Part shown: piece by piece, positions 1 through 36,839 of the stretch
Numbering within the stretch: the first letter of the stretch is position 1
Layout: each line of letters opens with the position of its first letter
DNA from: an uncultured Smithella sp.
GTDB taxonomy: Bacteria > Desulfobacterota > Syntrophia > Syntrophales > Smithellaceae
NCBI GenBank assembly: GCA_964450075.1
Contig: CAYVFA010000001.1
Coordinates: 11,893-75,892 of the forward strand
Reading direction: 5' to 3'
Length of the DNA stretch: 64,000 nt
Notes under the pieces: model-generated
Told to the model about the DNA's origin: nothing
The model's input: the letters and a program-made list of their open reading frames with translations, nothing else
The model's database searches: none
Translations under genes and position numbers: made by a program

Positions 1-635
1 TTACCACGCCGGAGGCGACCACGAAGGAGGCTATTACCATGGCCTTTGAGGACATGCGGCAGAAGGTTGGACCCAACGATCTTTTTATCTTCTACAATGC
101 ATCTCACGGCATGGTTGACGTGGTGAATGGTGAGGAACAATATTTTCTACTGACGAGTAATGTCCGGCTCCTTTCTTCTCAGCATATCAGCAAAGATGCC
201 CTGAGTCACAAGGATCTGGTGAGTCTAATTGGCAGTATTCCGGCGCAGAAGAAAGTGGTGATCCTCGACACCTGCAATGCGGGCAAAGGGGGCAAGGAAA
301 TCCAGATAGCCCTGCTGCAGCAAACGAGAGGCCTCACCGACGCAACAGCGGTCAAGCTCCTGCAGCGGGCTGTGGGTTCATCGGTCTTTTCCGCTTCTGC
401 CGACACCCAGCAGGCACTGGAAGGCTATAAAGGACACGGGCTATTTACCTATGTGCTTCTGGAAGGATTACAGGGTGCGGCGGACTTCAAGAAAGATGGC
501 TTCATCACCGTGAAGGGTCTTGCCCTGCACACGGAGGAACGCGTGATGACACTTTCCGAGGAAGTTTTCAAACGTCAACAGAACCCGATGATCGAGACGG
601 GCGTCAATGATTTTCCGATTGGGAGGGTGAAGTAG
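1..635 (+). CDS. Caspase-like peptidase C14 domain protein, C-terminal part (5' end lies outside the window)
   Basis: The frame is open from nt 3. It has the FYNASHG motif (His codon 105-107) and VILDTCNAG motif (Cys codon 273-275). The C-terminus is clearly paralogous to the 10935-13268 product, including the shared ...FPIG(R/K)VK* end. Confidence 0.85.
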   Translation, partial: TTPEATTKEAITMAFEDMRQKVGPNDLFIFYNASHGMVDVVNGEEQYFLLTSNVRLLSSQHISKDALSHKDLVSLIGSIPAQKKVVILDTCNAGKGGKEIQIALLQQTRGLTDATAVKLLQRAVGSSVFSASADTQQALEGYKGHGLFTYVLLEGLQGAADFKKDGFITVKGLALHTEERVMTLSEEVFKRQQNPMIETGVNDFPIGRVK

Positions 636-682: not shown

Positions 683-1225
683 ATGATGCCTGAAATAGCT
701 TATACCAGCATTGGAAGAAATATGCTTTTTACGGGATTGATCAGTCACGTTGCCGCCATTCTTGTGGCGACCATGGCCGCTTCCGGCAGAGACCATTTTT
801 TCGGTTTTGTCTATTTATTCTCCTGCCTGCTCCTTGTTGCCGGCGCTTTTGCGGAATTGAAAAAAAAAGGCTACCGGCCATTGATCGAATGGCGATTCTA
901 CGTGATCGCGGCCCTAACGGTTTTCCCTTTACTTGGGCCGTTAATGGTTCTGGGGCTGGTTTACAGTATCCCGAAAAGCGGGCAGGAGGAACGCGTCAGT
1001 CTGTCGGGTTTGCTTCCAGCGTTTTTCAGGTTCAGGGCGAATGGAGTGGTTTTGTTTTTACTGATGATCTTTCTGTTTGTTTTATTTTTATTCGCAAGTC
1101 GTCAGGATGATCCTTACTTTAAGAAAAGATATCGGAACGATTTGGGCAGGAATTTGCCGAAGTCTGTTTTAGCAGCAGGTCATCACAGGGATTATGCCCA
1201 AATAGCCAAAATATTTTGCCGATGA
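683..1225 (+). CDS. Hypothetical polytopic membrane protein
   Basis: 180-aa ORF with several hydrophobic segments (LFTGLISHVAAILVATMAA, FVYLFSCLLLVAGAF, VVLFLLMIFLFVLFLF). I recognise no family. Confidence 0.55.
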   Translation: MMPEIAYTSIGRNMLFTGLISHVAAILVATMAASGRDHFFGFVYLFSCLLLVAGAFAELKKKGYRPLIEWRFYVIAALTVFPLLGPLMVLGLVYSIPKSGQEERVSLSGLLPAFFRFRANGVVLFLLMIFLFVLFLFASRQDDPYFKKRYRNDLGRNLPKSVLAAGHHRDYAQIAKIFCR

Positions 1226-1242
1226 GATGTAGGTGAAACACT

Positions 1243-2067
1243 TTGCTGAAAAAATATCAACCCGAACGCACGGATTTATTGATCAACACGGAATGGGGCA
1301 TCCCGCGCGACGGCTTGTCAAAAGAGGAAGCCAAAGGCCCGAAGATGCTTCTTTTCAAAGGCCGGTGGGTGACCAGGAAAGAAAAAAAGCAGCTTCAGGA
1401 CGAACGAAATGCCTACACTTCGATCAGGGTCATTGGCTATCTCCTTCTTTTTATTTGCGTTCCTGTTCTGATTAATATCCGACTAATTGCAGCCAATGGT
1501 ATCACGACTGTTGCCTTGGCCGTCATTTACGCGTTTGCCGCGGTAGCGACCGGCGCGGGATTAATCCGATATACGCGATATGCACGTTACCCGGCCGTTT
1601 TGCTTTTTATGTCCTTCTTCGTTTTGCCGTTTATGCCGCTCTTTGAAAGTGAAAAAGGATCACCGCTCCTGTTTATCCTTGGAATGGCTGGTCTTTATTA
1701 TCTTCTGCGCAAGACGGCACGGAATATTCTTTGGCCGCAGACCGGTCTTAAATCCGATGATAAAAGAATCAAGCCTGTTATTCGTATAATCATTTATGGC
1801 ATTGTCCTGATTGCCGGACTGTTGGCCGGTTATTTTATCTATGATGCGACACAGGCCGGGCGGATGGCCGCTGATGCCTGCGATTCTGCAGAAGCGGGAC
1901 AGCCTGTTGAAGAATACTTGTCAAAATTATCAAAAGAGGATTACAGAATAATCCGAAGATCTGAAACGATTATGATCGTGCCGAAAAGAGGCATGGGCCG
2001 GAACTACTGCACGATCACCCATGACGGCCGGATCATTACCGGCGCAGAAACAGGTTTTATGGATTAA
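1243..2067 (+). CDS. Hypothetical membrane protein with a soluble C-terminal domain
   Basis: TTG start 6 nt after AGGTGA. There are four hydrophobic segments and then a ~75-aa hydrophilic tail. No family recognised, and the start is uncertain. Confidence 0.5.
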   Translation: MLKKYQPERTDLLINTEWGIPRDGLSKEEAKGPKMLLFKGRWVTRKEKKQLQDERNAYTSIRVIGYLLLFICVPVLINIRLIAANGITTVALAVIYAFAAVATGAGLIRYTRYARYPAVLLFMSFFVLPFMPLFESEKGSPLLFILGMAGLYYLLRKTARNILWPQTGLKSDDKRIKPVIRIIIYGIVLIAGLLAGYFIYDATQAGRMAADACDSAEAGQPVEEYLSKLSKEDYRIIRRSETIMIVPKRGMGRNYCTITHDGRIITGAETGFMD

Positions 2068-2112
2068 GCAAACGCCTGCCAATAACTGTCGGGAAAACGA
2101 TTGGAGAAAATA

Positions 2113-3714
2113 ATGTTCAGATATAAAAAGAGTTTGTTACGTTGTTTGCTGATTTGCTTCGAAATTATTTTCATATCCTTCCTCAGTTCGGCTTCAGTCT
2201 TTGCCGGGACGAGAACTTTCATTAAGGAATACACTTACCAGGCAAGTGAAGACGACAGCCGGAACTCCAGCCGCGTCATTGCCTTGCGGGAGGTGAAAAG
2301 ACTTCTTTTGGAAGAACTGGGGACCTATCTGGAAAGTGAGACGGAAGTCAAAAACTATCAACTTACCCGTGACCAGATCACAACCCTTACCGCCGGCATT
2401 GTCCAGACAGAAATTATCGAAGAAAAGTGGGATGGGCGTTCATACTGGCTCAAGTCGAAGATAACGGCGGATGCCGAAAAAGTGGTGCAATCGATTGATA
2501 AGTTACGCAAAGACCGCGATAAGACCAATGAGCTCGAAGCGATGCGGCGGAAATCGGACGAGTTGCTTCGTGAAGTCGAGCGGCTGCGCAAACAAATGAG
2601 TTCCGGTAATGACGTCAACCGGGATCAGCAGAAGGCGGCTTATGACACATCGATCAAGCAACTCTCAGCGGCGGAATGGATTGAAAAAGGTCATGCCGTA
2701 TCAGGCCCTCATGATCAGTTCAAAGGGGCTTTTGATGCCTACAGCCGGGCCATCGAACTGGATCCGAACAATATCGAAGCGTATTATTTCCGGGCACGGA
2801 TCAGTGAAAAAAATCAGGCGATGTCCGATTACTACAAAATTCTGAGCATCGTGCCGAAAAATTCGGAAGCGCATCTCATTCGCGCCTGGACTTATAAGGA
2901 GCTTAATGAGCGTGATTCCGCGCTCAACGAATTCGCCAAAGCGATTGAGAACGCCAGGGGAAATAAAGAAATGGCTACAGCTTATCATGACCGCGGACGG
3001 TATTACACCTTGCTTCGCCCCAGGCCTTACGTCAAGTCAGGGAGCCTGACGATCCCAAACGCCATCGCGCTCTCCATTCATGATTTCAGCAAAGCCATCG
3101 CGCTTGATCCAAAGGAATCATCCTATTATTCTTCGCGTGCGGATGCTTACCTGGGAGCCGGCAAGTATGATTTGTCCATTAACGATTTCAATATCGCAAT
3201 CGCAATGGAACCGAAAAGTGCCGGATTGTATTCGGCAAGAGCGCATGTTTTTCGCTTTCTCAATAAAATGGAGCAGGCCGCCGCTGATTTCAGCCGGGCC
3301 ATTGAACTTGACCCGGAAAGTCTGTTTGTTACGCATGATTACATGATGAGAGCAGTTACCTACGAAAATCTTGGCAAATTCGATCTTGCGATCCGGGATT
3401 GGAGCAAGCTGATCGAACTGAAACCGAAAGAGTCTGGTAACTACCGGGCTAGAGCCGAAAATTATGCGAAACTCAAAAAGTATGATCTCGCCATCAAGGA
3501 CTACGGCAAGGCGGTATCGCTTGCGCCCAAAGAGGGTGCACTCTACTATGGACGCGCGCGGATTCACGCGCTTCTGAAAGATAAACACAAAGCCATTAAG
3601 GATCTGACGGTAGCAATTCAGCTTAGCCAGAGCTACAAAGAATCAGCCCGCAACGAAGCAGCGTTTGATTCCGTCCGTCAACACGCTGATTTCATCAAAC
3701 TGGTGGTGAAATAA
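2113..3714 (+). CDS. Exported TPR-repeat protein with N-terminal LPP20-like module and coiled coil
   Basis: ATG 2113 follows GGAG. The signal peptide ends ...SSASVFA-G. There are multiple TPR units (AIELDPNNIEAYYFRA, AIALDPKESSYYSSRADAY, AIAMEPKSAGLYSARA, AIELDPES...). The N-terminal ~100 aa resemble the N-terminus of the 10055 product. Confidence 0.85.
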   Translation: MFRYKKSLLRCLLICFEIIFISFLSSASVFAGTRTFIKEYTYQASEDDSRNSSRVIALREVKRLLLEELGTYLESETEVKNYQLTRDQITTLTAGIVQTEIIEEKWDGRSYWLKSKITADAEKVVQSIDKLRKDRDKTNELEAMRRKSDELLREVERLRKQMSSGNDVNRDQQKAAYDTSIKQLSAAEWIEKGHAVSGPHDQFKGAFDAYSRAIELDPNNIEAYYFRARISEKNQAMSDYYKILSIVPKNSEAHLIRAWTYKELNERDSALNEFAKAIENARGNKEMATAYHDRGRYYTLLRPRPYVKSGSLTIPNAIALSIHDFSKAIALDPKESSYYSSRADAYLGAGKYDLSINDFNIAIAMEPKSAGLYSARAHVFRFLNKMEQAAADFSRAIELDPESLFVTHDYMMRAVTYENLGKFDLAIRDWSKLIELKPKESGNYRARAENYAKLKKYDLAIKDYGKAVSLAPKEGALYYGRARIHALLKDKHKAIKDLTVAIQLSQSYKESARNEAAFDSVRQHADFIKLVVK

Positions 3715-3730: not shown

Positions 3731-6730
3731 ATGGTTATGTGTAAGAAAATATTATTTGTTATTTGTCTTTTACTAATATCCCTTTTGGGAACGCTTGCTT
3801 TTGGCGCCGAGCGGGCGTCATTTGGTTTAATGATCAAGGCGGTAACGGCTGAATATGCGCAATTTATCGGTCTCACCGCTCCTGAGGGCGCCTACGTCGT
3901 TTCAGTGCCGCAGGCAGGCGACTTGCGGCCCGGTGACGTCATCCTGAAGGTTGATGACCGGAGCATCAACGCGCCTGCTGATTTGCAAGCGGTCGCGAGA
4001 TTTTATCAGCCGGGTGACAAGGTGCAGTTGCAGATTGCACGAGGTAAAGAGCGTCTCCAGATCAGCTACACTTTGAAAAGAGCTGCCGTACCGCCGGTTC
4101 GTTCGAGTCAATCCTTGCAGGCGTCGATCGTCTCAAGTTATTTCCCGACCGTGGAAAGTTCGCGCTTTGAACAGGACGTGTTGGGGGCTGAACAGCCTGT
4201 GCTGGCTTATTTCTACGCAAACTGGTGTGCGCCCTGTAAAATGTACCTGCCGATCATGCAGCAGGCCAAAGAGCAATATCCCGATGTTAAAATCGTCGGC
4301 ATTGATATCGACAAAAGCCGTGATATCGTCAGCCGCTATGGCGTATCAGGAATATTGCCGACGGTCATCCTGTTCAACGGCGGCCGGGAAGTGGACAAAA
4401 TTTCGCGGCCGTCACGCAAGGAACAGTTAGCGGAACTGCTCGCCAAGACGCGCAGTGACCATGATGAAATTGAAGTCTTCGCCTCCCTCGGCAGGGGGAG
4501 CTGGATCTTGCAGGTTGCTTTTATCAAGGACACGGAGCTGATGGCCGCCAGAGATGCTTCCGGGGCGATTAAAGTCTGGGATTACCAGCGGGGAGCCCAG
4601 GTGCGAACCTATCGCGCGGCGGTATCCGGTTTATCGCCCAACGGGGTCTATGCGGCGCTGGCTGATCCGCAGCGGACGGCCATACAGATTGTGGATATTG
4701 TGCGCCGGCAGCAAAAAGCCATCCGGACGCAGCAGTTTGTTGAAAAATTGGCGATATCACCGCGCGGCAATGCGGTGGCCAGTTTTGGAGCAGACCGCAA
4801 TGGCCGTTTCAGTGTCGATATCTGGAGCCCGGATAACCGGCTGATCAAGTCCATTCCTGTTGACCCGGGAACCAGTCCGCATTCAGTGATGTTTGTCTTT
4901 TCACCTGACGGCGCACACTTTGCGCTTTCCACCTTGAATAAACTTGAGCTGTTCACCACGAAAAGCTGGACGCATGAAGCGGTTGTCCCGCTAAAAGGTA
5001 CGGCGGCGGTGTTGCAGTTTACTTCCGACAGCAAGGCTGTCTGGATCACGGGGAAAGAGGCGCTACTGATCGACCTGCAGGGAAACAAACAGAGCGGGTC
5101 TGACGGCCGCGTGGTTGTGGGCAGGCCTGATGATCGTGTGGCCATTGCGGATAATGGTGATAATTCCTTTCGTTTGATGAGCAGCCAGTCCGATGGGAAG
5201 GGGCTTCGTTTTGCCGGTCATCGTGCGCCCATCAACGCGGGGGCGGCAAGCGATGCAGTCCCGTGGCTGGCCAGCGGTAGTTCGGACGGGACTGTCCGGC
5301 TGTGGGATACGGCTTCCGGCAGAGAGGTTGGACAGTTTGTTGATTTCGGCAATGGCGAATGGATCGTGATAACGAAAGAAGGGTATTACAATTCTTCGGC
5401 CCGGGGGCATGAATATCTGAAAATCCGCAGAGGCAACAAAGTTTACGGGATTGACCAGTTTTATGACGTGTTTTACCGTCCCGATATCGTAATGGCAAAA
5501 CTCAAAGGAGAGGATATTACGGGTCTTGTCACTCTGACGGTGGAAGAGGCGATCAAAAATCCTCCTCCTGCGGTGAAAATTTCTCAATTACCGGATCAGG
5601 TCGGCGATCCGGTAGTGAAAGTCTGCTATCAGGTGCAAAGCACCGGCGGCGGCATTGGCGAGGTGCGTTTGTTCCAGAATGGCAAACTGATTAAATCCGA
5701 CGGATTCTATCGCGACGTGGCAGCACAGGGTAAATCGGCAACCATGAAGCTGGCTTCCGTCAACAGCAGCGTTGTTTATCAGGACATGCGCTCACTGACC
5801 ATCAAGGAAAAACAAAGTCCCGGCGCACACGTTCTCCGGGCAAAGGGCGAGTTGTTTGATGAATGTGTGGACATCGTAACCATTGCCGGTGAAAACGAAA
5901 TCAGCCTCACTGCTTTCAATGCTCAAAATTCGGTACAGAGTGCAATGGGCACAGTCCGCTTCCACTCGACCATACCGCCCGACGAGCCGCATCTGTATAT
6001 CCTGGCTGTCGGCATTGACCGGTATCGCGATTCCGCAATCAATCTGAAGTATGCGGCCAAGGATGCCAGGGATTTTATGACCCGGATGGCCGATAAGGCT
6101 AAAACCATCTACAAACCGGCAAACATCCATCTGACCATCCTGGTCGATGAACAGGCGGGCAAGCAAAACATTTTGAACTCCATCGAAAAACTGGCGGCGC
6201 AAGTCAAGCACGGCGATAGTTTTATCTTTTTCAATGCGTCCCACGGTTTGCTTTTGCAAAGCCAGTACTACATGGTCACCAGCGGTTTTGCTGGCACGCT
6301 GGACCAAAACGCAAGCCTGATCAGCTCCAACGAGATTGTCGAGATGTCCAAAAAGATCAAAGCGCTGTCGCAGTTGTTTGTTTTTGACACCTGCCATGCC
6401 GGTGGCGTGGATAATATTATCAGCGGACTGTATGACGCCCGGATGTCGGTGCTGGCCAAAAAGATGGGGCTGCATATCTATGCCTCAGCCGGAAGTGTGC
6501 AAACCGCCCTGGATGGTTATCAGGCCAACGGTCTGTACACCTACACCCTGCTTGCCGGATTGAAAAATGGCGCGCTCGTGGACAGGGATAAAAGTGGTGT
6601 GGTAACGGTTAAAAGTCTGGGGATTTTTTCCAGAGAGATGACACGGGAAATTTCCAGTAAACTTGGCCATCCCCAGACGCCGTTGATCATCAATTTTGGC
6701 AAAGACAGCCGATTGTTTAACGTGCGTTGA
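3731..6730 (+). CDS. Exported PDZ - thioredoxin-like - WD40/beta-propeller - Ig-like - caspase (C14) multidomain protein
   Basis: Signal peptide ...GTLAFG-A. PDZ-like GDLRPGDVILKVDDRSINAP..GDKVQLQIARG. Thioredoxin-fold segment VLAYFYANWCAPCK (CxxC at 4226-4237). WD-like repeats (SGSSDGTVRLWDTASG). Caspase His codon at 6242-6244 (FFNASHG) and Cys codon at 6392-6394 (FDTCHAGG). Confidence 0.85.
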   Translation: MVMCKKILFVICLLLISLLGTLAFGAERASFGLMIKAVTAEYAQFIGLTAPEGAYVVSVPQAGDLRPGDVILKVDDRSINAPADLQAVARFYQPGDKVQLQIARGKERLQISYTLKRAAVPPVRSSQSLQASIVSSYFPTVESSRFEQDVLGAEQPVLAYFYANWCAPCKMYLPIMQQAKEQYPDVKIVGIDIDKSRDIVSRYGVSGILPTVILFNGGREVDKISRPSRKEQLAELLAKTRSDHDEIEVFASLGRGSWILQVAFIKDTELMAARDASGAIKVWDYQRGAQVRTYRAAVSGLSPNGVYAALADPQRTAIQIVDIVRRQQKAIRTQQFVEKLAISPRGNAVASFGADRNGRFSVDIWSPDNRLIKSIPVDPGTSPHSVMFVFSPDGAHFALSTLNKLELFTTKSWTHEAVVPLKGTAAVLQFTSDSKAVWITGKEALLIDLQGNKQSGSDGRVVVGRPDDRVAIADNGDNSFRLMSSQSDGKGLRFAGHRAPINAGAASDAVPWLASGSSDGTVRLWDTASGREVGQFVDFGNGEWIVITKEGYYNSSARGHEYLKIRRGNKVYGIDQFYDVFYRPDIVMAKLKGEDITGLVTLTVEEAIKNPPPAVKISQLPDQVGDPVVKVCYQVQSTGGGIGEVRLFQNGKLIKSDGFYRDVAAQGKSATMKLASVNSSVVYQDMRSLTIKEKQSPGAHVLRAKGELFDECVDIVTIAGENEISLTAFNAQNSVQSAMGTVRFHSTIPPDEPHLYILAVGIDRYRDSAINLKYAAKDARDFMTRMADKAKTIYKPANIHLTILVDEQAGKQNILNSIEKLAAQVKHGDSFIFFNASHGLLLQSQYYMVTSGFAGTLDQNASLISSNEIVEMSKKIKALSQLFVFDTCHAGGVDNIISGLYDARMSVLAKKMGLHIYASAGSVQTALDGYQANGLYTYTLLAGLKNGALVDRDKSGVVTVKSLGIFSREMTREISSKLGHPQTPLIINFGKDSRLFNVR

Positions 6731-6865
6731 AGATAAAACAAGGTAAAAACGGCATTCCAAATATAACTTGCGATAATATATAAAAACGATTCCGTCTTTT
6801 TTATTGCCATTTGGCGCTTGTCGAAGTATGTATTCTCAAATATTTTATCTGGGGAGATTCCTTAC

Positions 6866-8512
6866 ATGCAAGCGAAGCCCGCAAGATATTTTCTTATTCT
6901 GTTAGTCCTTATTGTCATTTATCCGGCTTTATCCATTGCTGCGACGCAGCACCGCTCTGCGCTGGTCATCGGCAATAGCGCATACAGCGCAGGCCCACTG
7001 AAGAATCCGGTCAACGATGCAGCGGACATGGCAACTGCACTCAAAGGCCTCGGCTTCAATGTCAACATGCACCGCAATGCCAACCACCAGACCATGGAAA
7101 ATGCTATCCGGGAGTTTGGCGGAAAGCTCAGGAAAAACCGTGGAGTGGGACTTTTCTACTATGCCGGCCACGGGATGCAAATCGGCGGCGTCAATTACCT
7201 CATCCCTGTCGGTGCCCGTGTGGATAAGGAATCAGACGTAAAGTTTCAGGCCGTCAACGCGGATATTATTCTGGCTGAAATGGAGAATGCCGACAATGGC
7301 ATGAACATCGTCCTGCTTGATGCCTGCAGGGACAATCCTTTCGCCCGTTCATTCAGAAGCGCCACAAGAGGCCTTGCCATCATCAGCAACGCACCGACGG
7401 GCACCTTTATTTCGTATTCCACGGGTCCCAACCAACTGGCTAAAGATGGAGAGGGAAGAAACAGCCCTTACACCAAGGCACTTCTGGAGAATATTGCCAT
7501 GCCTGGATTGAATATAAACAAGATCTTTATGAACGTAAGAAGTAAGATTATGAAGTCCACCGGCCAGGTACCTTGGGAGCTGTCATCATTGGTAGGGGAC
7601 TTCTACTTCATTCCACCAAAGGGATCTGTTGCTTCCGTGCGGGATGAAGCTATTAAGGCTTCTCAGGCTATAGACGCCATGGACGAGGAGAACCAGAGAC
7701 TAGATACGGAAAAGGAAGTCCAAAGCCAGGCAAAGCTGGAACAGAAGCAGGAGAAGAAGACAACAAATACCTTGTCCACAAGCACGGACAATGTCTTGGC
7801 CCATCCGCCGGAGCTTTCGCACGATAGTTTATTTACCGACCCCACCACTGTTATGCAGTTTGTCTTCGTCAAGGGTGGCTGCTACCAGATGGGAGACACC
7901 TTTTGGTTTGGTAAATTTGACAAAAAACCAGTCCATGATGTTTGTGTCAGCGATTTTTATATTGGGAAATATGAAGTTACACAGGGCGAATGGCAGAAAA
8001 TTATGGGCTACAACCCTTCATATTTCGGAAGTTGCGGCGAAAACTGCCCAGTGGAGAGAGTCTCATGGAATGACGCTCAGGATTTTATAAAGAAACTCAA
8101 CAGCCTGACGGGGAAACGATATCGTTTGCCGACAGAGGCAGAATGGGAATACGCGGCAAAAAGCGGCGGAAAAAGCGAGAAATATGCGGGTGATAGTGAT
8201 GTCGACACTGTGGCTTGGTATCGGGGTAATTCTAGCAAAGAAACTCACCCAGTTGGTCAGAAACAGCCTAATGGTCTGGGACTTTTCGACATGAGTGGAA
8301 ATGTTTGGGAGTGGTGTAATGACTTGTATGGAAGCGATTATTACAAAAACAGCCCACAAAATAACCCTGACGGGCCGTCGTTAAGTGACGGGCGCGTCCT
8401 TCGTGGCGGGAGCTGGAGCGACAATGCGTACACTTCTGACCGCTATTGGGACTATCCTGTCAAACGGATTGACTACGTAGGTTTGCGGCTTTCCTTCCCC
8501 CTAGGTCAGTGA
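6866..8512 (+). CDS. Exported caspase (C14) - FGE-sulfatase (SUMF1-like) domain fusion protein
   Basis: ATG 6866 gives signal peptide MQAKPARYFLILLVLIVIYPALSIA-A. Caspase motifs are ALVIGNSAY, FYYAGHG (His 7169-7171) and LLDACRDNPF (Cys 7325-7327). The C-terminal FGE-sulfatase motifs are VSWNDAQDF, RLPTEAEWEYAA, GNVWEWCND and RVLRGGSW. Confidence 0.88.
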   Translation: MQAKPARYFLILLVLIVIYPALSIAATQHRSALVIGNSAYSAGPLKNPVNDAADMATALKGLGFNVNMHRNANHQTMENAIREFGGKLRKNRGVGLFYYAGHGMQIGGVNYLIPVGARVDKESDVKFQAVNADIILAEMENADNGMNIVLLDACRDNPFARSFRSATRGLAIISNAPTGTFISYSTGPNQLAKDGEGRNSPYTKALLENIAMPGLNINKIFMNVRSKIMKSTGQVPWELSSLVGDFYFIPPKGSVASVRDEAIKASQAIDAMDEENQRLDTEKEVQSQAKLEQKQEKKTTNTLSTSTDNVLAHPPELSHDSLFTDPTTVMQFVFVKGGCYQMGDTFWFGKFDKKPVHDVCVSDFYIGKYEVTQGEWQKIMGYNPSYFGSCGENCPVERVSWNDAQDFIKKLNSLTGKRYRLPTEAEWEYAAKSGGKSEKYAGDSDVDTVAWYRGNSSKETHPVGQKQPNGLGLFDMSGNVWEWCNDLYGSDYYKNSPQNNPDGPSLSDGRVLRGGSWSDNAYTSDRYWDYPVKRIDYVGLRLSFPLGQ

Positions 8513-8588: not shown

Positions 8589-8652
8589 TTTAGGGGGATT
8601 GAGCTTCAGGCTCATAGTCACCCTTAGTAAAGGGGGGACAGGAGGGATTTTA

Positions 8653-9021
8653 ATGTTGCCCTTTAATAAAAAATTAAAGCCGTTGGCCCGGACGTTAAGA
8701 AGCAACATGACCGATGCCGAGCAGCTTATCTGGTCGAAGATCAGGCGAAAACAGATAGGCAACTTGCAATTCTACCGTCAGAAAAACATAGGTAACTACA
8801 TTGTGGACTTTTATTGCCCCAAGGCTAAACTTATCTTGGAGATTGACGGTGGGCAGCATTACGAAAGCAATGGGGTGAGAAAGGACCAGACCAGGGAACG
8901 CTATCTTCAAGGTTTGGGATTAACTGTGATGCGCTTTTCCAACATAGACATTCTCAAAAATATTGATGGCGTTTCAGAAAAAATTGAGGACTATTTAAAA
9001 TCCACCCCACCCCTCCTTTAA
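8653..9021 (+). CDS. DUF559 (Vsr-like PD-(D/E)XK endonuclease) domain protein
   Basis: ATG 8653 follows GGAGGG. The sequence LARTLRSNMTDAEQLIWSKIRRKQ..FYRQKNIGNYIVDFYCPKAKLILEIDGGQH...ERYLQGLGLTVMRF is typical of DUF559. Confidence 0.85.
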   Translation: MLPFNKKLKPLARTLRSNMTDAEQLIWSKIRRKQIGNLQFYRQKNIGNYIVDFYCPKAKLILEIDGGQHYESNGVRKDQTRERYLQGLGLTVMRFSNIDILKNIDGVSEKIEDYLKSTPPLL

Positions 9022-9031: not shown

Positions 9032-9218
9032 AGACTCGCGTTTCACGCGAAATCCACTTCAACCCTACCCTAGAAAAGGATGGGATTTTGCTGGTATGGC
9101 GAAGGAAACTATATGAAAAAGATAATGTTGAAGATTTATCGGTAAAAATGAAACGTTAAGGCTTCAAAGGCAGATATGAGGACGGCCGTCACGGGCGTTA
9201 TTTATGGAGGCGTGATTG

Positions 9219-9626
9219 ATGACTTCACAGGATGTTCGCTGGATTCAGCGTTTTAAACATTTTGAACAAGCATATGCTCAGTTGGAAAAGGCCGTGGAGC
9301 TTTCTAAAAAACGTCCGCTAACCGAGCTCGAAGAACAGGGAATCATTCAGGCTTTCGAATACACCCATGAACTGGCGTGGAACGTATTGAAAAACTTTCT
9401 GGAAGAACAGGGCGTGCGAGAGCTTTACGGCTCCAAAGACAGCAGCCGCGAGGCATTCAAACGGGGTCTCATCGAAAACGGAGACGCCTGGATGGACATG
9501 ATCCAAAACAGAAATCTTACCTCCTATACTTACAATAAAGATGTTGCTCAAAAAATTGTCCAAGCGATCCTGGAAAATTATTACGCGGAATTCGGAAGAC
9601 TGTTTGAAAAGTTTAAAAGCCTGTAA
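9219..9626 (+). CDS. HEPN-type nucleotidyltransferase substrate-binding protein (HI0074 family), putative toxin
   Basis: ATG 9219 follows GGAGG. The sequence RWIQRFKHFEQAYAQLEKAVE...IQAFEYTHELAWNVLKNFLE...RNLTSYTY fits the HI0074 family pattern. It is paired with the MNT gene 10 nt downstream. Confidence 0.85.
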   Translation: MTSQDVRWIQRFKHFEQAYAQLEKAVELSKKRPLTELEEQGIIQAFEYTHELAWNVLKNFLEEQGVRELYGSKDSSREAFKRGLIENGDAWMDMIQNRNLTSYTYNKDVAQKIVQAILENYYAEFGRLFEKFKSL

Positions 9627-9635
9627 GGAAAAGCC

Positions 9636-9992
9636 ATGAAATACGGACTCAAAGAATCCGCTATTGAGAAAATCTGCGAAATCTTCAATCGCTATCCACA
9701 GGTGGGCAAAGCTGTTCTGTATGGATCACGCGCCAAAGGAAACTATAAAAACGGGTCTGATATCGACCTGACACTGGATGGCGACGCCGACCTGACGATG
9801 AATGTCCTGTATAGGATTATGGATGATATTGACGACCTGTATCTGCCTTATCATTTTGACCTTTCCATTCTGAAGGATATCCGCGATCAGGATGTCCTCG
9901 ATCATATCCGGCGCATCGGCGTTGTATTCTACGAAAGAAAAGAAATCAGGAAGCTCGAATCAACCTTCGGGGAAGAAATTCATCATGCCTGA
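9636..9992 (+). CDS. Minimal nucleotidyltransferase (MNT, HI0073-like), putative antitoxin
   Basis: LYGSRAKGNYKNGSDIDL is the GS-x10-DxD nucleotidyltransferase motif. The product is 118 aa. Confidence 0.85.
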   Translation: MKYGLKESAIEKICEIFNRYPQVGKAVLYGSRAKGNYKNGSDIDLTLDGDADLTMNVLYRIMDDIDDLYLPYHFDLSILKDIRDQDVLDHIRRIGVVFYERKEIRKLESTFGEEIHHA

Positions 9993-10054: not shown

Positions 10055-10918
10055 ATGCGTAAAATATTATTGATTCTGGCTTTACTGGTTTTGATGGCTG
10101 TGCCGCTTTATGCCGCGCAATCGACGATTAAGATCGCGGAAGGTTCCGCCTGTATGGGGGATGACAAATCGCGCAAACAAACTGAAACGGCGGCCCTGAC
10201 CGAAGCCAAAAGAAACGCGGTCGAGTCGGTCAAAACCTATGTGTCGTCCGCAACGGAAGTAAAAGATTTTGAACTTCAAAAAGATCTTGTGTCCGCTTAC
10301 GCCAACGCCACGGTTTCAGTGATCGAGACACTGGAAAAGGCCTGGTATAAAGATCCGGCGCAGGGCGACTGTTACAAGATCAAGCTGAAGGCCGAAGTTA
10401 TTCCGGATGAAAAGGCCATGAAGAAAGCCAATGAAAAAGCCAGTGATGCGATCCTTGATGATCCGTCATTGCCTCTGACCGTGAAAGTCTGGACGGATAA
10501 AGCAGCTTATCGCACAGGCGAGAAAATCAAGATTTATCTCAAAGGCAACAAGCCTTTCTTTGCCCGGGTGATTTACCGCGACGCGGCAAAAACCAGCCTG
10601 CAGTTGCTGCCCAATCCCTACCGTCAGGACAATTACTTTCAGGGCGGCGTCATTTATGAAATCCCCTCCGGTAATGATAAATTTGAACTGGAAGTGAATC
10701 CGCCTTTCGGCGAGGAAAATATCATGGTTTATGCCAGTGTTTCCGAACTGGGCGATCTGAATTTGAAGGAAGAAGGCAGTGTCTATGCCGTCAAAACAAA
10801 ATCAAGGGACATTGGCATCAAAACCAGAGGGGTCAAAATTACAGCTGGCGGGCAGGCGAGCGCCACGCAGTCTGCGGAATTTTCCGAAGGCAAAGTGACG
10901 GTTAAGACAAAAAAATGA
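10055..10918 (+). CDS. Exported DUF4384 domain protein with N-terminal LPP20-like module
   Basis: AAGGAGG RBS and signal peptide ...MAVPLYA-A. The DUF4384-like core is LTVKVWTDKAAYRTGEKIKIYLKGNKPFFARVIYRD...LQLLPNPY...FELEVNPPFGEENIMVYAS. Confidence 0.8.
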   Translation: MRKILLILALLVLMAVPLYAAQSTIKIAEGSACMGDDKSRKQTETAALTEAKRNAVESVKTYVSSATEVKDFELQKDLVSAYANATVSVIETLEKAWYKDPAQGDCYKIKLKAEVIPDEKAMKKANEKASDAILDDPSLPLTVKVWTDKAAYRTGEKIKIYLKGNKPFFARVIYRDAAKTSLQLLPNPYRQDNYFQGGVIYEIPSGNDKFELEVNPPFGEENIMVYASVSELGDLNLKEEGSVYAVKTKSRDIGIKTRGVKITAGGQASATQSAEFSEGKVTVKTKK

Positions 10919-10934: not shown

Positions 10935-13268
10935 ATGTCTGTTTGTCGAACAGTAGTAATCGTCTGTTTTGCGCTTTTTCTTTCTTCCTGTGCGGCGACG
11001 CCTGTTTTGACCGGAAAAGGTGATATGTCGCGGGAAATTAAACAAAAAGCTCCCGCAGTGGGTAAGGTGGATATCTCTCCGGATGGACGATACGCTTTGT
11101 CGAGCAGCTTTGATTCTTTTATCCTTTGGGACATCCGGCAGGGTGTGAAAATACAGACTTTCAATCATGTTAGCGGCATGGGTTTTACAGTCGCGGTTGC
11201 TTTTTCGCCTGATGGAAAATATTTTGCCTCCGGTGGCAAAGGAACAAAACTTTGGGATTTGGCTACAAGACAGGAAATAATGACATTGGATGATGAGGGA
11301 ACGATCTCTGTCGCTTTCTCTCCTGATGGAAAATATCTTTTGTGCGGGAATACTTCTTTAGACTTGAACTTGCTTTCGGCACCTAAACCTCACACCATGA
11401 AAATCTTTGATGTGGCAACGGGACGAAAAGTCAGAGATTTTAAATTACATAAAAAAGATGTTATCTGCGCTGTTGCCTTTTCTCCGGATGGCAAATATGC
11501 ATTATCGGGCGGCAGTTTCGGCAATATTGAACTATGGAGTATATCGTCCGGGACGTCCGTGAAAACAGTGGCAGGAAGTGATGGTGCTTTTCTTCTGCCT
11601 CCTCGTGTTAATGCCGTTTCTTTTTCTTCAGATGGTGAATATGCCCTGTCGGGCGGACACGATAATCTTGTTAAATTGTGGAATACAAAAAACTTAACAC
11701 TGATCAGGACATTTGCCGGTCACTCTGGTATGGGCGGAGTTAGTTCCGTGGATTTTTCACGGGACGGTAAATATATTGTGTCCGCAGGATGGAATGGGAA
11801 CATAAAAATATGGGATTTGGCGACGGGAGCCAAATTAAAAGCTTTTAGCGGCAATATTGTTACAACGCAGGCCGGCACTTCGGCGAAATTCTTTCCAAAT
11901 GGCAGGCAGGTGATATCCGCAGGTGACGCTTCCACCCGAATATGGGATGCCGCCACAGGCGAAGAAATTGCTTCCATGATTGATTTTGAAGACGGCGAAT
12001 GGATTATAACAACAGCCAATGGCTATTATACCTCCTCCCCTAAAGGCGATCAGTATCTCGGCGTTACCGTCGGCGGTAAGGAATACAGCACAGAGCAGTT
12101 GCGGGAGAGTTTCTACCGTCCCGATCTTGTTCAGGTAGCACTTGGGGGTGGATCTTTAAAAGATCTGAAAAAGGTGGCGGATGTCAAACCGCCTCCGGTA
12201 GTGGCCATCGTCGATACGCCTAAAAGCATCGACAAGAGCGATGCGACCATCACCTTGAAAATTACCGATGCCGGTGGCGGCATTGGCGATATCCGGCTTT
12301 ACCTCAACGGGTCTGCTGTCATGCTGGACAGCACCAGAGGTGTAAAAGTTGTTACATCCAATCAGAGCGAAATTACAAAAACCTATCAACTGAAACTATC
12401 AAGCGGCGTGAACGTTGTCAGGGCCATTGCCTTTAATGCCGATAATACCATGCAAAGCACAGACGCTGTTCAGGAAATTACAGCGGCATTTAAAGCTGTC
12501 GGCAAGCCTTATCTTTATGCGTTGGTCATAGGCATCAACGAGTATAAAAACCCAAAACTCCAACTGAATTACGCTGTCGCTGATTCCGATCTGTTTGCCA
12601 ACACGCTTCAACAAGGCGCATCCTCTCTTTTTGAGAAAGTAACCATAAAAAAGCTTTCTTCTAAAGAAGAGACAACCCGGGAAAACATCTTAAAAGAACT
12701 CAAAGCCATGCAGTCGTTAAACCCCGACGACCTGTTTGTCTTCTATGTGGCAAGCCACGGTACAGTTGACGACGGAGAGTATTTTCTGATTACGTCCAAT
12801 GTCGGTTCTGTATCGACAGCAAAGCTCAAAACGGATGCGGTCAGTCAGAACTCATTGAAAGAACTGATTGCCAACATTCCCGCGACCAAGAAGCTGATCG
12901 TCATCGATACATGCAGTGCCGGTCAATTAGGCGATGTTATCCAAACGGCCATGCTGACGCGTGGCATGAGCGAAGCCACGGCCATGAAGGTGTTGAGCCG
13001 TGCGGTGGGCTCAACCATTCTTTCTGCTTCTACTTCGATTCAGGAAGCGCTGGAAGGATACAACGGGCATGGGCTCTTTACCTATGTCCTGGCGGATGGA
13101 TTGAAGGGCAAGGCGGACAAGAGCAAGACCGGGTTTATTAAGACAACAGAGCTGGCGGATTACGTGGATAATGAGGTACCCGCTCTTGCTGAAAAAGTAT
13201 TCAAACGGGCGCAGTACCCGACCATATCCATCAGCGGGCAGGGTTTTCCGATCGGAAAGGTAAAATAA
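10935..13268 (+). CDS. Lipoprotein WD40-repeat - Ig-like - caspase (C14) protein
   Basis: AAGGAG RBS and lipobox FLSSC. There are at least 7 WD40 units (VAFSPDGKYFASGG..KLWDL, GHDNLVKLWNT, GWNGNIKIWDLATG). The caspase His codon is 12756-12758 (FYVASHG) and the Cys codon is 12912-12914 (VIDTCSAG). Confidence 0.9.
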   Translation: MSVCRTVVIVCFALFLSSCAATPVLTGKGDMSREIKQKAPAVGKVDISPDGRYALSSSFDSFILWDIRQGVKIQTFNHVSGMGFTVAVAFSPDGKYFASGGKGTKLWDLATRQEIMTLDDEGTISVAFSPDGKYLLCGNTSLDLNLLSAPKPHTMKIFDVATGRKVRDFKLHKKDVICAVAFSPDGKYALSGGSFGNIELWSISSGTSVKTVAGSDGAFLLPPRVNAVSFSSDGEYALSGGHDNLVKLWNTKNLTLIRTFAGHSGMGGVSSVDFSRDGKYIVSAGWNGNIKIWDLATGAKLKAFSGNIVTTQAGTSAKFFPNGRQVISAGDASTRIWDAATGEEIASMIDFEDGEWIITTANGYYTSSPKGDQYLGVTVGGKEYSTEQLRESFYRPDLVQVALGGGSLKDLKKVADVKPPPVVAIVDTPKSIDKSDATITLKITDAGGGIGDIRLYLNGSAVMLDSTRGVKVVTSNQSEITKTYQLKLSSGVNVVRAIAFNADNTMQSTDAVQEITAAFKAVGKPYLYALVIGINEYKNPKLQLNYAVADSDLFANTLQQGASSLFEKVTIKKLSSKEETTRENILKELKAMQSLNPDDLFVFYVASHGTVDDGEYFLITSNVGSVSTAKLKTDAVSQNSLKELIANIPATKKLIVIDTCSAGQLGDVIQTAMLTRGMSEATAMKVLSRAVGSTILSASTSIQEALEGYNGHGLFTYVLADGLKGKADKSKTGFIKTTELADYVDNEVPALAEKVFKRAQYPTISISGQGFPIGKVK

Positions 13269-17496: not shown

Positions 17497-17626
17497 TGAA
17501 TCTCCCTTTCCGGTTTTTATGAAGGCACTCTATACTATAAAAATACTTGCAATTGAAATAGATTAATTTTAACTATAAGCCGAAATCGTAAAAAGTCGTA
17601 TTGAAATCAGATTGTAAGGAGTGCTT

Positions 17627-19629: not shown

Positions 19630-19631
19630 GT

Positions 19632-19673
19632 GGTGGATGGTAGATGGTAGATAGTGGATAGTGGATAGTGAAT
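19632..19673. repeat. Heptanucleotide tandem repeat, six units RGTRGAT (GGTGGAT GGTAGAT GGTAGAT AGTGGAT AGTGGAT AGTGAAT)
   Basis: Read directly. It starts 3 nt after the nifS stop, and degenerate units continue to ~19690. It has the same consensus as 634-654. Confidence 0.7.
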
Positions 19674-19695
19674 GGGATAAGGATAGTGTGATGAG

Positions 19696-34451: not shown

Positions 34452-36839
34452 ATGTCTATGAGAATGATGAAGGTTATTTTTAACCTATGTATCTCATTCG
34501 TAATCATGAGTTGTGCGCATGCACCAACGCAGGTGCAGTTTTGCGAAAACAATAAATGCGCAGTTCTCTCTGAAGCCGATTCCCAAGATGCGGTATTTCA
34601 AAAGATTACTTCTATGATGAAATCCAATCTCAATAAAACAATACCTCTGATTGTAGGTCGCGAAAAGGAAGGCAAAACGGATACTGATATCGTTGGACAT
34701 CACAGATGGATCGCGAAAAATCATGTAGAATATGAAATATCACCGAGAATTCATTCTCTTACTTTCACCGACATTCTCTACATAGATCGAGAAACAAGAG
34801 AAATCAAGGTTATGGCCCAGGCTGATATTTCACACCCTGCTTTTCCTTCGGCTCAATGTGGCACTTACCCAGCCCTCTCGTCAACTGTTCAGATGCCTTC
34901 TGCCATAACTGTAAAATCGTCGAATAAGATTACGTTTACAGGCAAAATCAATATACCTGTTATACATTTACTTCCCCATCCATTGTGTCCCGAATTTAAG
35001 ATTGATATTGATGGTTTGATTGATTATATTGATGTCGATAAGTTATTTATGGCTTCTGAATTTTCAATTGACGTCTATGGCCAAAATACTGGTCTTACAC
35101 GCAAGAATGGTTATCTGCATCTTTCCTTCAAGGACGGCGTACATAAAACAAGTAAAACATATGAAAAAGCAAAAAATCTATCGGCAAAACCGACTATTTA
35201 CCAGCAGGCAAAGGAAAGTAAGGAGATTGTTGAAATTATCACTGCGGCAGATACTCCTCAACTTGCCTACACAGTAAAGCTACAAGATCAGAACAACAAC
35301 AAAGTACTTGATGGCGGCGAGAAAGTAAGCCTGCGCGTGGAAGTTGAAAACACAGGCGAAGGTACAGCCAATGATGTAAGCATTGAACTTACGGGCCAGA
35401 AGGAAATCATTGATGCCCTGGGTAACAAGGCATCAATTGGGGATATTCAACCGAAGCAGAAGAAGCTGTATGAGTTCAAGGGCGTTTTGCCTCTGCAAAT
35501 CCCTTCCGGCAAAGCTGTGGTGCGCGTGGAAATAGTTGAAGACAAGGGATTTTCACCTCAAGAGAAGAAGTCGTTTCAGATAGCGATGCGACCATCTAAG
35601 GTGGCAAAGGAAAGCAAGGAAAGTTTTGAAGTTATTGCCGCAAAGCTTCCCCGGCTTGCCTACACCGTGGGGCTGCAAGATCAGGACAACAACAAGGTCC
35701 TCGATGGTGGAGAGAAATTAAGCCTGCGTGTGGAAGTTGAAAACACAGGCGAAGGTACAGCCAATAATGTGAGCATTGAGCTATCCGGTCAGAAGGAAAT
35801 CATTGATGCCTTGGGCAGTAAGGCGCAAATCGGGGACATTCAACCGAAACAGAAAAAGGTGCATGAGTTCAAGGGTGTTTTACCCGTCAATATTCCTTCA
35901 TCCACTGCCCTGTTACGAGTTAGTCTCCATGAATTTAACGGATATTCTCCCGCCAGAGGAAAGTCTTTTCAGATAGCCATGAAAGCTGCGGAAACGGCAA
36001 CGGACCAGACCGAGATTATATCTGAAGTAGATGTTGACGATATACCTCAGCGGATCAAAGGTGCTGAGAATAAGAATAACTATGCCATTGTCATTGGCAT
36101 CGGCACATATCGGGACAAAATTATTCCCAAGGTTAAATATGCCAATCGAGATGCGGAAACCATGGCCAGATACCTGGAAAATTTAGCTGGGATTCCTAAA
36201 GGGAATATTTTAATTAAAACGGATTCGGATGTAACTAAGGGTGACTTGGAAGACTATTTTGAAAACTGGCTGCCCCGGAGGGTCACCGGTGATTCTCTGG
36301 TTTATGTTTACTATGCAGGTCACGGTACACCTGATCCTGCAGGGAAAGATGCCTACATTGTTCCGTATGAAGGCCATCCGGATTCTCCCGGCAAACTTTA
36401 CCCGCTGACGAAGATGTATGCTGCACTGACCAAACTGCCGGCGAAACAGGTAGTGGTGATGCTGGACAGTTGTTTTTCCGGTGTGGAAGGGCGTGGTGTA
36501 ATAAGTGAAGGCACAAGGCCTTTGGTCATGTCTGTAGAGAATCAGGTATTGACTGGGAATAGGGTGTTTGTAATTACCGGAGCAAAGGGAAATCAGATGA
36601 GTTCTGATTATGACAAGGTAAAGCATGGCCTGTTCACATATTATCTTTTAAGAGGTATCCGGGGAGAAGCAGATAAAAGTGGGCGCGGTGTTGTCAGTGT
36701 TGGAGACTTATATGAATACGTCAAGCAAAGTGTCACCCGGACAGCATCTTTGGAATTAAACAGAGATCAGACACCCGATTTACTTCCCGGCAAGGCAGCC
36801 GAAAGTATACTTTCTCTGCCCATAGCAAGGACAAAATAA
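34452..36839 (+). CDS. Lipoprotein with duplicated CARDB/Ig-like domains and C-terminal caspase (C14) domain
   Basis: Lipobox VIMSC. Two 132-aa tandem repeats are present. Caspase motifs are YAIVIGIGTY, VYYAGHG (His 36321-36323) and VMLDSCFSG (Cys 36471-36473). Confidence 0.88.
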   Translation: MSMRMMKVIFNLCISFVIMSCAHAPTQVQFCENNKCAVLSEADSQDAVFQKITSMMKSNLNKTIPLIVGREKEGKTDTDIVGHHRWIAKNHVEYEISPRIHSLTFTDILYIDRETREIKVMAQADISHPAFPSAQCGTYPALSSTVQMPSAITVKSSNKITFTGKINIPVIHLLPHPLCPEFKIDIDGLIDYIDVDKLFMASEFSIDVYGQNTGLTRKNGYLHLSFKDGVHKTSKTYEKAKNLSAKPTIYQQAKESKEIVEIITAADTPQLAYTVKLQDQNNNKVLDGGEKVSLRVEVENTGEGTANDVSIELTGQKEIIDALGNKASIGDIQPKQKKLYEFKGVLPLQIPSGKAVVRVEIVEDKGFSPQEKKSFQIAMRPSKVAKESKESFEVIAAKLPRLAYTVGLQDQDNNKVLDGGEKLSLRVEVENTGEGTANNVSIELSGQKEIIDALGSKAQIGDIQPKQKKVHEFKGVLPVNIPSSTALLRVSLHEFNGYSPARGKSFQIAMKAAETATDQTEIISEVDVDDIPQRIKGAENKNNYAIVIGIGTYRDKIIPKVKYANRDAETMARYLENLAGIPKGNILIKTDSDVTKGDLEDYFENWLPRRVTGDSLVYVYYAGHGTPDPAGKDAYIVPYEGHPDSPGKLYPLTKMYAALTKLPAKQVVVMLDSCFSGVEGRGVISEGTRPLVMSVENQVLTGNRVFVITGAKGNQMSSDYDKVKHGLFTYYLLRGIRGEADKSGRGVVSVGDLYEYVKQSVTRTASLELNRDQTPDLLPGKAAESILSLPIARTK
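35208..35987 (+). repeat. Intragenic tandem duplication, 2 x ~396 nt (units start at 35208 and 35604)
   Basis: Both units start AKESKE and share long identical nucleotide runs, e.g. GTTGAAAACACAGGCGAAGGTACAGCCAAT and CAGAAGGAAATCATTGATGCC. Confidence 0.85.

Follow-up and report, generated by a model that had tools for sequence, protein, structure and literature searches.

What does a thioredoxin domain with an intact redox motif do in the same exported polypeptide as a caspase-fold protease? The question is raised by a gene in a stretch of 64,000 nucleotides (nt) of DNA from an uncultured Smithella sp. (GCA_964450075.1, contig CAYVFA010000001.1, positions 11,893-75,892, forward strand), and this whole stretch is referred to below as the window. 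The gene, at 3731..6730 on the plus strand, encodes the protein considered here (the target), in which a signal peptide, an HtrA-type PDZ domain, a thioredoxin domain, a seven-bladed WD40 propeller, a beta-sandwich and a C14 caspase domain follow one another. Bacterial homologues of caspases are abundant; to our knowledge, substrates or triggers have been identified for almost none of them, and the exported ones are unstudied. Our comparison of the target with its relatives indicates that its N-terminal half is one of several heads carried by a conserved protease chassis, and we propose, tentatively, that this head serves to dock and prepare the protein that the protease would cut.

Domain architecture and conservation of the target protein

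The target is encoded by a single open reading frame (ORF) of 999 codons with an ATG start and a plausible ribosome-binding site immediately 5' of it; the NCBI call of the same gene starts two codons downstream and gives a product of 997 amino acids (aa) (P0001, 100% identical). The features of the gene and its product are as follows.

3731..3808, plus strand: Sec-type signal peptide, residues 1-26, predicted cleavage after AFGA, read from the sequence
3809..4090, plus strand: HtrA/DegP-type PDZ domain, residues 27-120, with an S-F-G-L loop containing Gly32
4136..4456, plus strand: classical thioredoxin domain, residues 136-242, from Pfam
4223-4237, plus strand: thioredoxin active site Trp165-Cys166-Ala-Pro-Cys169 (Trp165 at 4223-4225)
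4358-4360, plus strand: Pro210 of the thioredoxin cis-Pro loop (GILPT), from the sequence
4463..5410, plus strand: seven-bladed WD40-like beta-propeller, residues ~245-560, from Pfam, AlphaFold2 (AF2) and Foldseek
5303..6730, plus strand: conserved chassis, residues ~525-999, comprising the last WD blade, a helical linker, the beta-sandwich and the caspase domain
5561..5974, plus strand: beta-sandwich ('Ig-like') domain, residues ~611-748, with Cys632 at 5624-5626 and Cys712 at 5864-5866
5984..6727, plus strand: Peptidase C14 caspase/orthocaspase domain, residues 752-999, with His838, Cys888, Asp778 and Asp886

A homologue search over 5.8 billion clusters returned about 40 clusters of 55-100% identity that have the entire architecture, which is therefore not a chance assembly. 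The named clusters come from metagenome-assembled genomes (MAGs) of Syntrophaceae, Smithellaceae or "Deltaproteobacteria", and the family is so far known from uncultured anaerobes only. Below these orthologues the matches fall sharply to WD40-caspase proteins of no more than 37% identity. Twenty-four sequences were aligned as orthologues, and it is to these that statements of invariance refer below; they are 55-85% identical over their full length, without obvious hypervariability.

A preliminary description of this locus had named a signal peptide and PDZ-like, thioredoxin-fold, WD-like, Ig-like and caspase segments, and most of this anatomy is borne out by profile searches, with the PDZ, thioredoxin, WD and caspase segments each scoring above the Pfam gathering cut-off. 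The nucleotide positions given there for CAPC (4226-4237), for His838 (6242-6244) and for Cys888 (6392-6394) are exact. The signal peptide was recognised by inspection: the N-terminus reads MVMCKKILFVICLLLISLLGTLAFGA, with ERA following the predicted cleavage point, and has a basic n-region, a hydrophobic core whose 12-residue Kyte-Doolittle mean reaches 3.4, and a small-residue c-region with the A-F-G-A motif. Equivalent N-termini are present in all 24 aligned orthologues, and a hydrophobic N-terminus is found in 94 of 120 full-length family representatives. From its N-terminus, we infer that the target is apparently exported by the Sec route and located in the periplasm or at the cell surface.

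The PDZ and thioredoxin assignments over residues ~30-240, on which the preliminary description had made its case depend, are both supported by Pfam. PDZ_2 matches residues 53-113 with 41.8 bits (cut-off 27; expectation value (E) 1.3e-10), and positions 234-340 of the NCBIfam DegP-family model TIGR02037 align to residues 27-128 with 51.4 bits. This is below the cut-off of 416 for that model, so the target is not a member of the HtrA/DegP family, and the Pfam scan found no trypsin-like domain in it. The AF2 model of the PDZ domain has a predicted local distance difference test score (pLDDT) of 80-90; its carboxylate-binding loop (x-hydrophobic-G-hydrophobic) is present as S-F-G32-L, and Gly32, Gly68 and Asp69 are invariant. 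The thioredoxin domain is matched by Pfam Thioredoxin (PF00085) over residues 141-238 with 76 bits (cut-off 23.5; E 2.5e-21), has alternating strands and helices over residues 143-238 in the AF2 model (pLDDT 80-89), and finds its closest solved relatives among genuine thioredoxins (LPBCA thioredoxin, E 1.4e-19). Its scores lie below the cut-offs of the equivalog models for TrxA and TrxC (TIGR01068, 76.6 against 96.8 bits; NF006898, 51.3 against 138; NF008229, 50.2 against 125), and the domain is thus, as judged by these profiles, of thioredoxin type and not an orthologue of the housekeeping thioredoxins.

The intact WCAPC motif and the cis-Pro region of the preliminary description are not a peculiarity of one sequence, in that Trp165, Cys166, Cys169, Pro174 and Pro210 are invariant across the orthologues. 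The dipeptide between the two cysteines does vary, being AP in 12 sequences, VP in five, GP in two, VH in two, and TP, TH and SY in one each; the most divergent orthologues (P0026, P0038, P0039 and P0040) carry CVHC, CTHC or CSYC in place of CxPC. Invariant cysteines around drifting intervening residues are the pattern expected of an active site that is used, and the alignment indicates that the thioredoxin site is under purifying selection. The variation of the dipeptide also implies that redox potential probably differs among the orthologues.

The propeller is supported by a Pfam WD40 match over residues 494-526 (37.3 bits, cut-off 27), by many further propeller models across residues 244-540, and by an AF2 model with pLDDT of about 90. 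When the full-length model was compared with the PDB using Foldseek, seven-bladed WD40 propellers were matched (E 2e-15, target template modelling (TM) score 0.6-0.7), and propellers were the only matches of that search. For residues ~611-748, AF2 predicts a sandwich composed entirely of beta-strands, interrupted by a disordered insert (strands at residues 614-617, 628-636, 642-649, 652-656, 708-716, 720-730 and 740-746). Of the earlier 'Ig-like' label, the beta-sandwich thus stands; the assignment to a known Ig-type family does not, as none was matched by sequence. A profile of the sandwich matched neither solved structures nor the CARDB domain of the paralogue at 34452.

The caspase domain is the most conserved part of the target. 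Pfam Peptidase_C14 (PF00656) matches residues 758-948 with 51.1 bits (cut-off 21.4; E 1.9e-13), and a separate AF2 model of residues 600-999 (pLDDT 80.6, predicted TM score 0.82) has as its best Foldseek match 3BIJ, GSU0716 of Geobacter (E 5e-12), followed by MALT1 (~1e-10) and caspase-9 and -3 (to 1e-7); a sequence search of the same residues against the PDB using phmmer gave nothing meaningful. The intact dyad proposed earlier is retained in every orthologue: the H-G motif (His838-Gly839) and the D-x-C-H-x-G motif (Asp886-Thr-Cys888-His-Ala-Gly) are invariant, as is Asp778. In the wider set of 82 chassis relatives described below, His838 is present in 82 and Cys888 in 81, whether or not thioredoxin is present. 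In the one remaining relative (L079:9319-12540) a tyrosine occupies the position of the catalytic cysteine, with the histidine and the sandwich cysteines kept, and this protein may be a pseudo-protease. Asp778 and Asp886 lie at the positions described for the pocket residues Asp95 and Asp211 of TbMC2 (PMC8283722), as mapped by motif and not by structural superposition, and these invariant acidic residues predict cleavage after Arg or Lys in the manner of meta- and orthocaspases. The target is, on these profile and motif matches, a multidomain orthocaspase, that is, a predicted cysteine protease of clan CD family C14 with an intact dyad.

A conserved protease chassis with exchangeable heads

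To place the fusion within its family, residues 600-999 were used in an exhaustive HMMER search, which found 17,380 proteins with E<1e-3 and 399 with E<1e-30 (50%-identity representatives). Whether the architecture is in fact common was a point raised by the preliminary description; thioredoxin was found in only two of the 150 best representatives, namely the representative of the target's own family and P0165, a protein of 1007 aa with the domain order of the target and WCAPC, which is 39% identical to it in the thioredoxin domain. Fusion to thioredoxin is therefore a rare side branch within this large family. With the PDZ-thioredoxin block (residues 27-250) as query, nothing was recovered beyond fragments of the target's own family; relatives in which the block stands alone or is fused to something else were not found. 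A second arrangement occurs in a Nitrospiraceae MAG (CAZHHV010000035; L061:538-3654), where signal peptide, thioredoxin (CKPC), WD, PDZ, WD, sandwich and caspase follow one another; its thioredoxin and caspase domains are confirmed by Pfam, and its PDZ call comes from a local hidden Markov model (HMM) derived from the orthologues. The L061 arrangement need not share its origin with the PDZ-thioredoxin form, and searches with its N-terminus were swamped by matches to WD40 repeats and are uninformative on further members. Both thioredoxin cysteines and the cis-proline are kept in P0165 and in L061.

To collect relatives in their genomic context, two caspase motifs were searched for in one genome of each species; this yielded 193 relatives, and 80 loci were retained. 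All ORFs of these 80 loci were then compared with domain HMMs derived from the alignment of the orthologues, and 82 distinct chassis proteins were identified. Many of these lack PDZ and thioredoxin, with sandwich and caspase HMM scores nearly equal to those of the orthologues. Four kinds of head are found on the chassis: PDZ-thioredoxin-propeller, double propeller (proteins of ~1100 aa), PDZ(-PDZ)-propeller (~1000 aa) and a single-propeller lipoprotein form (~825 aa). The identities to the target, domain by domain, differ between the double-propeller proteins and the orthologues.

Double-propeller proteins of L016, L019 and L021 against the target: propeller 37-40%, sandwich 70-75%, caspase 82-84% identity
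PDZ-thioredoxin orthologues P0036 and P0040 against the target: propeller 54-58%, sandwich 53-55%, caspase 65-74% identity

In a comparison sliding along 40 residues at a time, the target and the double-propeller relatives are 15-35% identical as far as residue ~525 and 65-100% identical beyond it, whereas identity to the true orthologues is uniform (40-88%). The mosaic thus switches sharply at residue ~525 (nt ~5303), within the last WD blade, as seen in loci L016, L019, L021 and L027, which suggests that heads have been recombined or replaced at one constant position in that blade. The PDZ-thioredoxin and double-propeller variants also share a gene slot, in that both have upstream of them the same caspase gene (1393/1407 aa, 64% identical between a PDZ-thioredoxin and a double-propeller locus) and a common pair of small membrane proteins. 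In the recovered loci, the two variants occur in non-overlapping sets of 10 and 11 assemblies. In a neighbour-joining tree of the chassis they are intermingled in one shallow clade, and it is for this general point only that the tree is relied on. We conclude that residues 27-525 represent a head exchanged, by recombination or head replacement, on a conserved chassis of residues 525-999.

The cysteines of the protein are informative in this respect. The mature target has only five, namely the CxxC pair, Cys632 and Cys712 of the sandwich, and the catalytic Cys888. Cys632 and Cys712 are both present in 82 of 82 close chassis relatives, with or without thioredoxin, and are absent from distant family members. 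The thioredoxin-less paralogue at 10935..13268 in the window lacks both, and from this came the idea that the pair tracks thioredoxin and forms an intramolecular switch; the idea was rejected, since the close chassis relatives carry the pair whatever their head. Cys632-Cys712 is more probably a structural disulfide of an exported beta-sandwich, which fits an extracytoplasmic location.

The distribution of these cysteines bears directly on the explanation that had been offered for the fusion at the outset, namely that periplasmic redox state gates the protease. In its fuller form, the thioredoxin domain would keep Cys888 reduced, or lock it in a mixed disulfide, and proteolysis would be switched by the redox state or the oxygen exposure of a strict anaerobe. 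Thiol oxidation, and thioredoxin in trans, are indeed known to regulate cysteine proteases, among them caspases, a diatom metacaspase and Atg4 (PMC7226053), a precedent that favours such a gate, as do the strong purifying selection on the thioredoxin cysteines and the fact that five mature cysteines leave few possible intramolecular partners, all of them conserved. However, the same chassis with Cys632, Cys712 and Cys888 is found in at least 69 relatives without thioredoxin, including paralogues in the same genomes and sister proteins in the same slot, so that a built-in reductase is not required by the protease. The rarity of thioredoxin among the 150 family representatives also counts against the gate, and thioredoxin accompanies PDZ in both known arrangements, which points to target binding. 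We therefore regard control of the protease by its own thioredoxin as unlikely, although it is the strongest rival to the mechanism that we favour.

A tentative mechanism

That the same chassis exists without thioredoxin, and that in sister lineages the PDZ-thioredoxin block is replaced by a second propeller in the same gene slot, fits a swappable target-handling head better than a required redox gate. The explanation we favour, to which we would give somewhat less than an even chance, is that the PDZ-thioredoxin head docks a target protein and exchanges disulfides with it, so that a caspase of Arg/Lys type can cut. In this mechanism the head would select and prepare the target, with the PDZ domain holding the free C-terminal tail of that protein and the propeller holding its body. 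Thioredoxin would then carry out thiol-disulfide exchange on it, either opening a protecting disulfide or tethering the target through a transient mixed disulfide, after which the caspase domain would cleave behind a basic residue and the thioredoxin would be recharged by a reductant of the envelope. The paralogous exported caspases of the cluster, with other heads, would act alongside, each presumably on its own target. The docking step has a well-established parallel, in that PDZ-guided proteolysis is known for the HtrA and Tsp proteases.

Several observations weigh against this mechanism. No DsbD/CcdA-type reductant adjoins the target gene in four annotated orthologous loci or is found among the scanned genes of the window. 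The position of Asp26 of E. coli thioredoxin is occupied here by Tyr160 (tyrosine in 23 and phenylalanine in one of the 24 orthologues), the equivalence being taken from a motif alignment to E. coli TrxA, and loss of Asp26 should slow the resolution of mixed disulfides. CxHC and CxYC dipeptides are typical of isomerases or oxidases and not of reductases; the divergent orthologues that carry them thus have oxidase- or isomerase-like sites, and the redox role may vary within the family. Finally, head swapping shows modularity, and not that the job of the head is the handling of substrate.

The lost Asp26 equivalent is among the points that would fit a thioredoxin domain acting only as a binding or structural module, comparable to the redox-inactive domains of PDI, which would leave the protein as an exported caspase guided by PDZ and WD40 domains. 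The exchange of the thioredoxin block for a pure binding domain, the propeller, and a score that falls short of the TrxA equivalog model (76.6 bits against a cut-off of 96.8) are consistent with this. Against a purely non-catalytic role, both cysteines, the tryptophan, Pro174 and the cis-proline are invariant in the orthologues, the cysteines and the cis-proline persist even in P0165 and L061, and it is the positions around the active site that vary, which is the signature of a working site. A thioredoxin fold without redox function is, in our judgement, very improbable.

A broader statement covers disulfide exchange on either partner: that the target is a self-contained extracytoplasmic reductase-protease, the first natural and working fusion of thioredoxin and caspase, in which exchange is coupled to cleavage and heads are swapped near residue 525. 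The exchange would act on the substrate or on the catalytic cysteine of the protease itself. Taken as a whole, this is possible, although rather doubtful.

Gene neighbourhood of the target

The genes around the target in the window include the following.

39..635, plus strand: C-terminal part of a WD40-caspase paralogue, cut by the window edge (Pfam Peptidase_C14)
683..1225 and 1243..2067, plus strand: two small membrane proteins of 180 and 274 aa, upstream of the chassis genes
2101..3714, plus strand: exported TPR protein (Pfam TPR models), ending 16 nt before the target
6818..8512, plus strand: exported caspase and FGE-sulfatase-like protein (Peptidase_C14 E 8e-37, FGE-sulfatase E 2e-42), directly downstream of the target
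10055..10918, plus strand: exported DUF4384 protein (Pfam)
10935..13268, plus strand: lipoprotein WD40-caspase paralogue without PDZ or thioredoxin (Pfam)
34452..36839: CARDB and caspase gene

The window thus has at least five caspase genes (39..635, 3731..6730, 6818..8512, 10935..13268 and 34452..36839), and the presence of at least four besides the target points to a large set of apparently exported caspases in the source genome. Full-length counterparts of the truncated gene at 39..635 occur in L002, L010, L016, L017 and L021 (92-95% identity). The two small membrane proteins belong to no Pfam, NCBIfam or PADLOC family; loci of both the PDZ-thioredoxin and the double-propeller type have homologues of them upstream (45-67% identity), and these proteins may be anchors or partners of the caspase system. 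The TPR gene and the target are probably co-transcribed, and the TPR gene is not conserved beside the orthologues. The TPR protein (2101-2400) and the DUF4384 protein (10055-10350) have in common an N-terminal domain of ~85 aa (31% identity, pairwise E 2e-9), which has no name in any of the libraries searched. The DUF4384 protein is found, 79-86% identical, in four of 11 PDZ-thioredoxin loci, and a paralogous caspase in most of them. The orthologues have varying neighbours, drawn once more from caspase, CHAT, WD40, TPR, ankyrin and DUF4384 proteins.

The abundance of caspases around the target would suit a helper acting in trans, in which the thioredoxin-bearing paralogue reduces or activates the other exported caspases of the cluster, or forms their sandwich disulfide, with its PDZ domain and propeller binding them. 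One or more further caspase genes lie within 10 kilobases in nine of 12 distinct PDZ-thioredoxin loci, and the present window has at least four more; the cysteine pair of the chassis must be oxidised while Cys888 stays reduced; and the CxHC and CxYC variants resemble isomerase-type sites. However, in genomes that carry the double-propeller variant the caspases nearby are the same and the recovered loci contain no thioredoxin-bearing paralogue, and the protease site of the target itself is fully conserved, which would be needless in a pure helper. We consider this role distinctly improbable.

The middle of the cluster also contains a DUF559 endonuclease-like gene and a toxin-antitoxin pair of the HepT/MntA type (HEPN/nucleotidyltransferase), at 8599-9021 and 9216-9992. 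Elsewhere, a Kunitz/BPTI gene lies directly upstream of the orthologue in L003 (2032-2526, minus strand), and a serpin gene ~1 kilobase downstream of the orthologue in L004 (14152-15360). PADLOC applied only its generic 'caspase' model to the caspase genes, assigned nothing to their neighbours and reported no defence system, and the model for EACC1-associated caspases (NF047832) scored 46.9 bits against a cut-off of 140.

These neighbours raise the question of whether the exported caspases could belong to an extracytoplasmic conflict or self/non-self system, acting on proteins of phage, predators or competitors, with head swapping as the trace of an arms race. Variable heads on a constant effector in a recombination-like mosaic would be in keeping with such a system, as would the several paralogues per genome, the toxin-antitoxin pair and DUF559 gene within the cluster, and the inhibitor genes of the Kunitz and serpin types near two orthologues. 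In contrast, PADLOC's generic match brings with it none of the known partners, the EACC1-type score is far below its cut-off, and the full-length identities of 55-85% among the orthologues, without obvious hypervariability, likewise count against it. A role in conflict is in our view improbable; it concerns biological role, and is compatible with either substrate handling or a redox gate as the mechanism.

Farther along the window (17621-20682), genes for a NifU-like scaffold, a NifS-like cysteine desulfurase and a serine acetyltransferase-like protein stand in a row, as read from their translations only.

Comparison with known systems

The preliminary description knew of no characterised protein in which a redox-active thioredoxin fold is joined to a caspase-fold protease, and none has come to light in surveys or in full-text searches. 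The surveys of prokaryotic caspases list WD40, TPR, Sel1, FGE-sulfatase and others as fused domains, and never mention thioredoxin or PDZ among them (PMC3501461, PMC6426788, PMC8283722, PMC4933709); full-text literature searches found no paper on a thioredoxin- or PDZ-caspase fusion. The sequences themselves are already in databases, under the names "thioredoxin domain-containing", "PDZ domain-containing" and "wd40 repeat subgroup", and in IMG as "thioredoxin-like negative regulator of GroEL"; the architecture has gone unrecognised and the protease has been missed by public annotation.

The orthocaspases (MaOC1 of Microcystis aeruginosa; 3BIJ, GSU0716 of Geobacter sulfurreducens) have the C14 fold and the His-Cys dyad in common with the target, as well as acidic residues that in the target are predicted to line the pocket; WD40, TPR and FGE-sulfatase domains are the usual accessory partners of prokaryotic caspase homologues (PMC3501461). 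None of the orthocaspases, however, has been described with thioredoxin or PDZ, and the characterised examples are cytoplasmic and small, whereas in the target, which is apparently exported, the protease is preceded by a beta-sandwich whose two cysteines are conserved. HtrA, DegP and DegS (S1C) and Tsp and CtpA (S41) resemble the target in joining an exported protease to PDZ, which in the target is of HtrA type. In the HtrA and Tsp families PDZ binds C-terminal tails, and delivers substrates or activates the protease. These are serine proteases, in contrast to the caspase-fold cysteine protease of the target, in which an N-terminal PDZ domain is followed by thioredoxin and a propeller.

On the redox side, the lysosomal thiol reductase GILT uses a CxxC motif to open disulfides of substrates for cathepsins in a non-cytoplasmic compartment. 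The logic is that proposed here for the target, although the functional likeness is hypothetical, and GILT is a separate enzyme of another fold family that works with proteases of another clan. Links between thiol redox state and cysteine proteases are also found in Atg4 and thioredoxin, in S-nitrosated and glutathionylated caspase-3 and in the diatom metacaspase PtMC5, where the partners are separate and cytoplasmic (PMC7226053), unlike the single exported polypeptide described here. The paracaspase MALT1, the second-best structural match, likewise sets a caspase beside an Ig-type beta-sandwich and is Arg-specific, as is predicted for the target; it differs in being eukaryotic and cytoplasmic, in having its Ig3 domain after the caspase, and in having death and Ig domains and no PDZ, thioredoxin or WD40. 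A thioredoxin fold together with PDZ is found in the Trx7/PDZ (seleno)protein NF041199, whose PDZ part weakly matches residues 59-114 of the target. In that family PDZ is C-terminal and there is no protease, and the target, at 24.6 bits against a cut-off of 300, is not a member.

Implications for exported bacterial caspases

With its own thioredoxin and PDZ domains, the target offers an experimental handle on an exported caspase, in that mutation of the resolving cysteine of the CxxC motif should trap the partner, be it a substrate or the active site of the protease itself. In addition, proteins that differ in their heads and have one protease body in common occupy equivalent gene slots, and they form a natural comparison set for the contribution of the head. 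Should the coupling of thiol exchange to cleavage prove true, it would represent a new form of control of cysteine proteases outside the cytoplasm and a bacterial parallel to the cross-talk of thioredoxin and caspases in eukaryotes, and the fusion would be a 'Rosetta stone' for thioredoxin-caspase links that are known in eukaryotes only in trans. The family would then be a cassette system, in which exported caspases gain new targets by head swaps at a fixed junction near residue 525.

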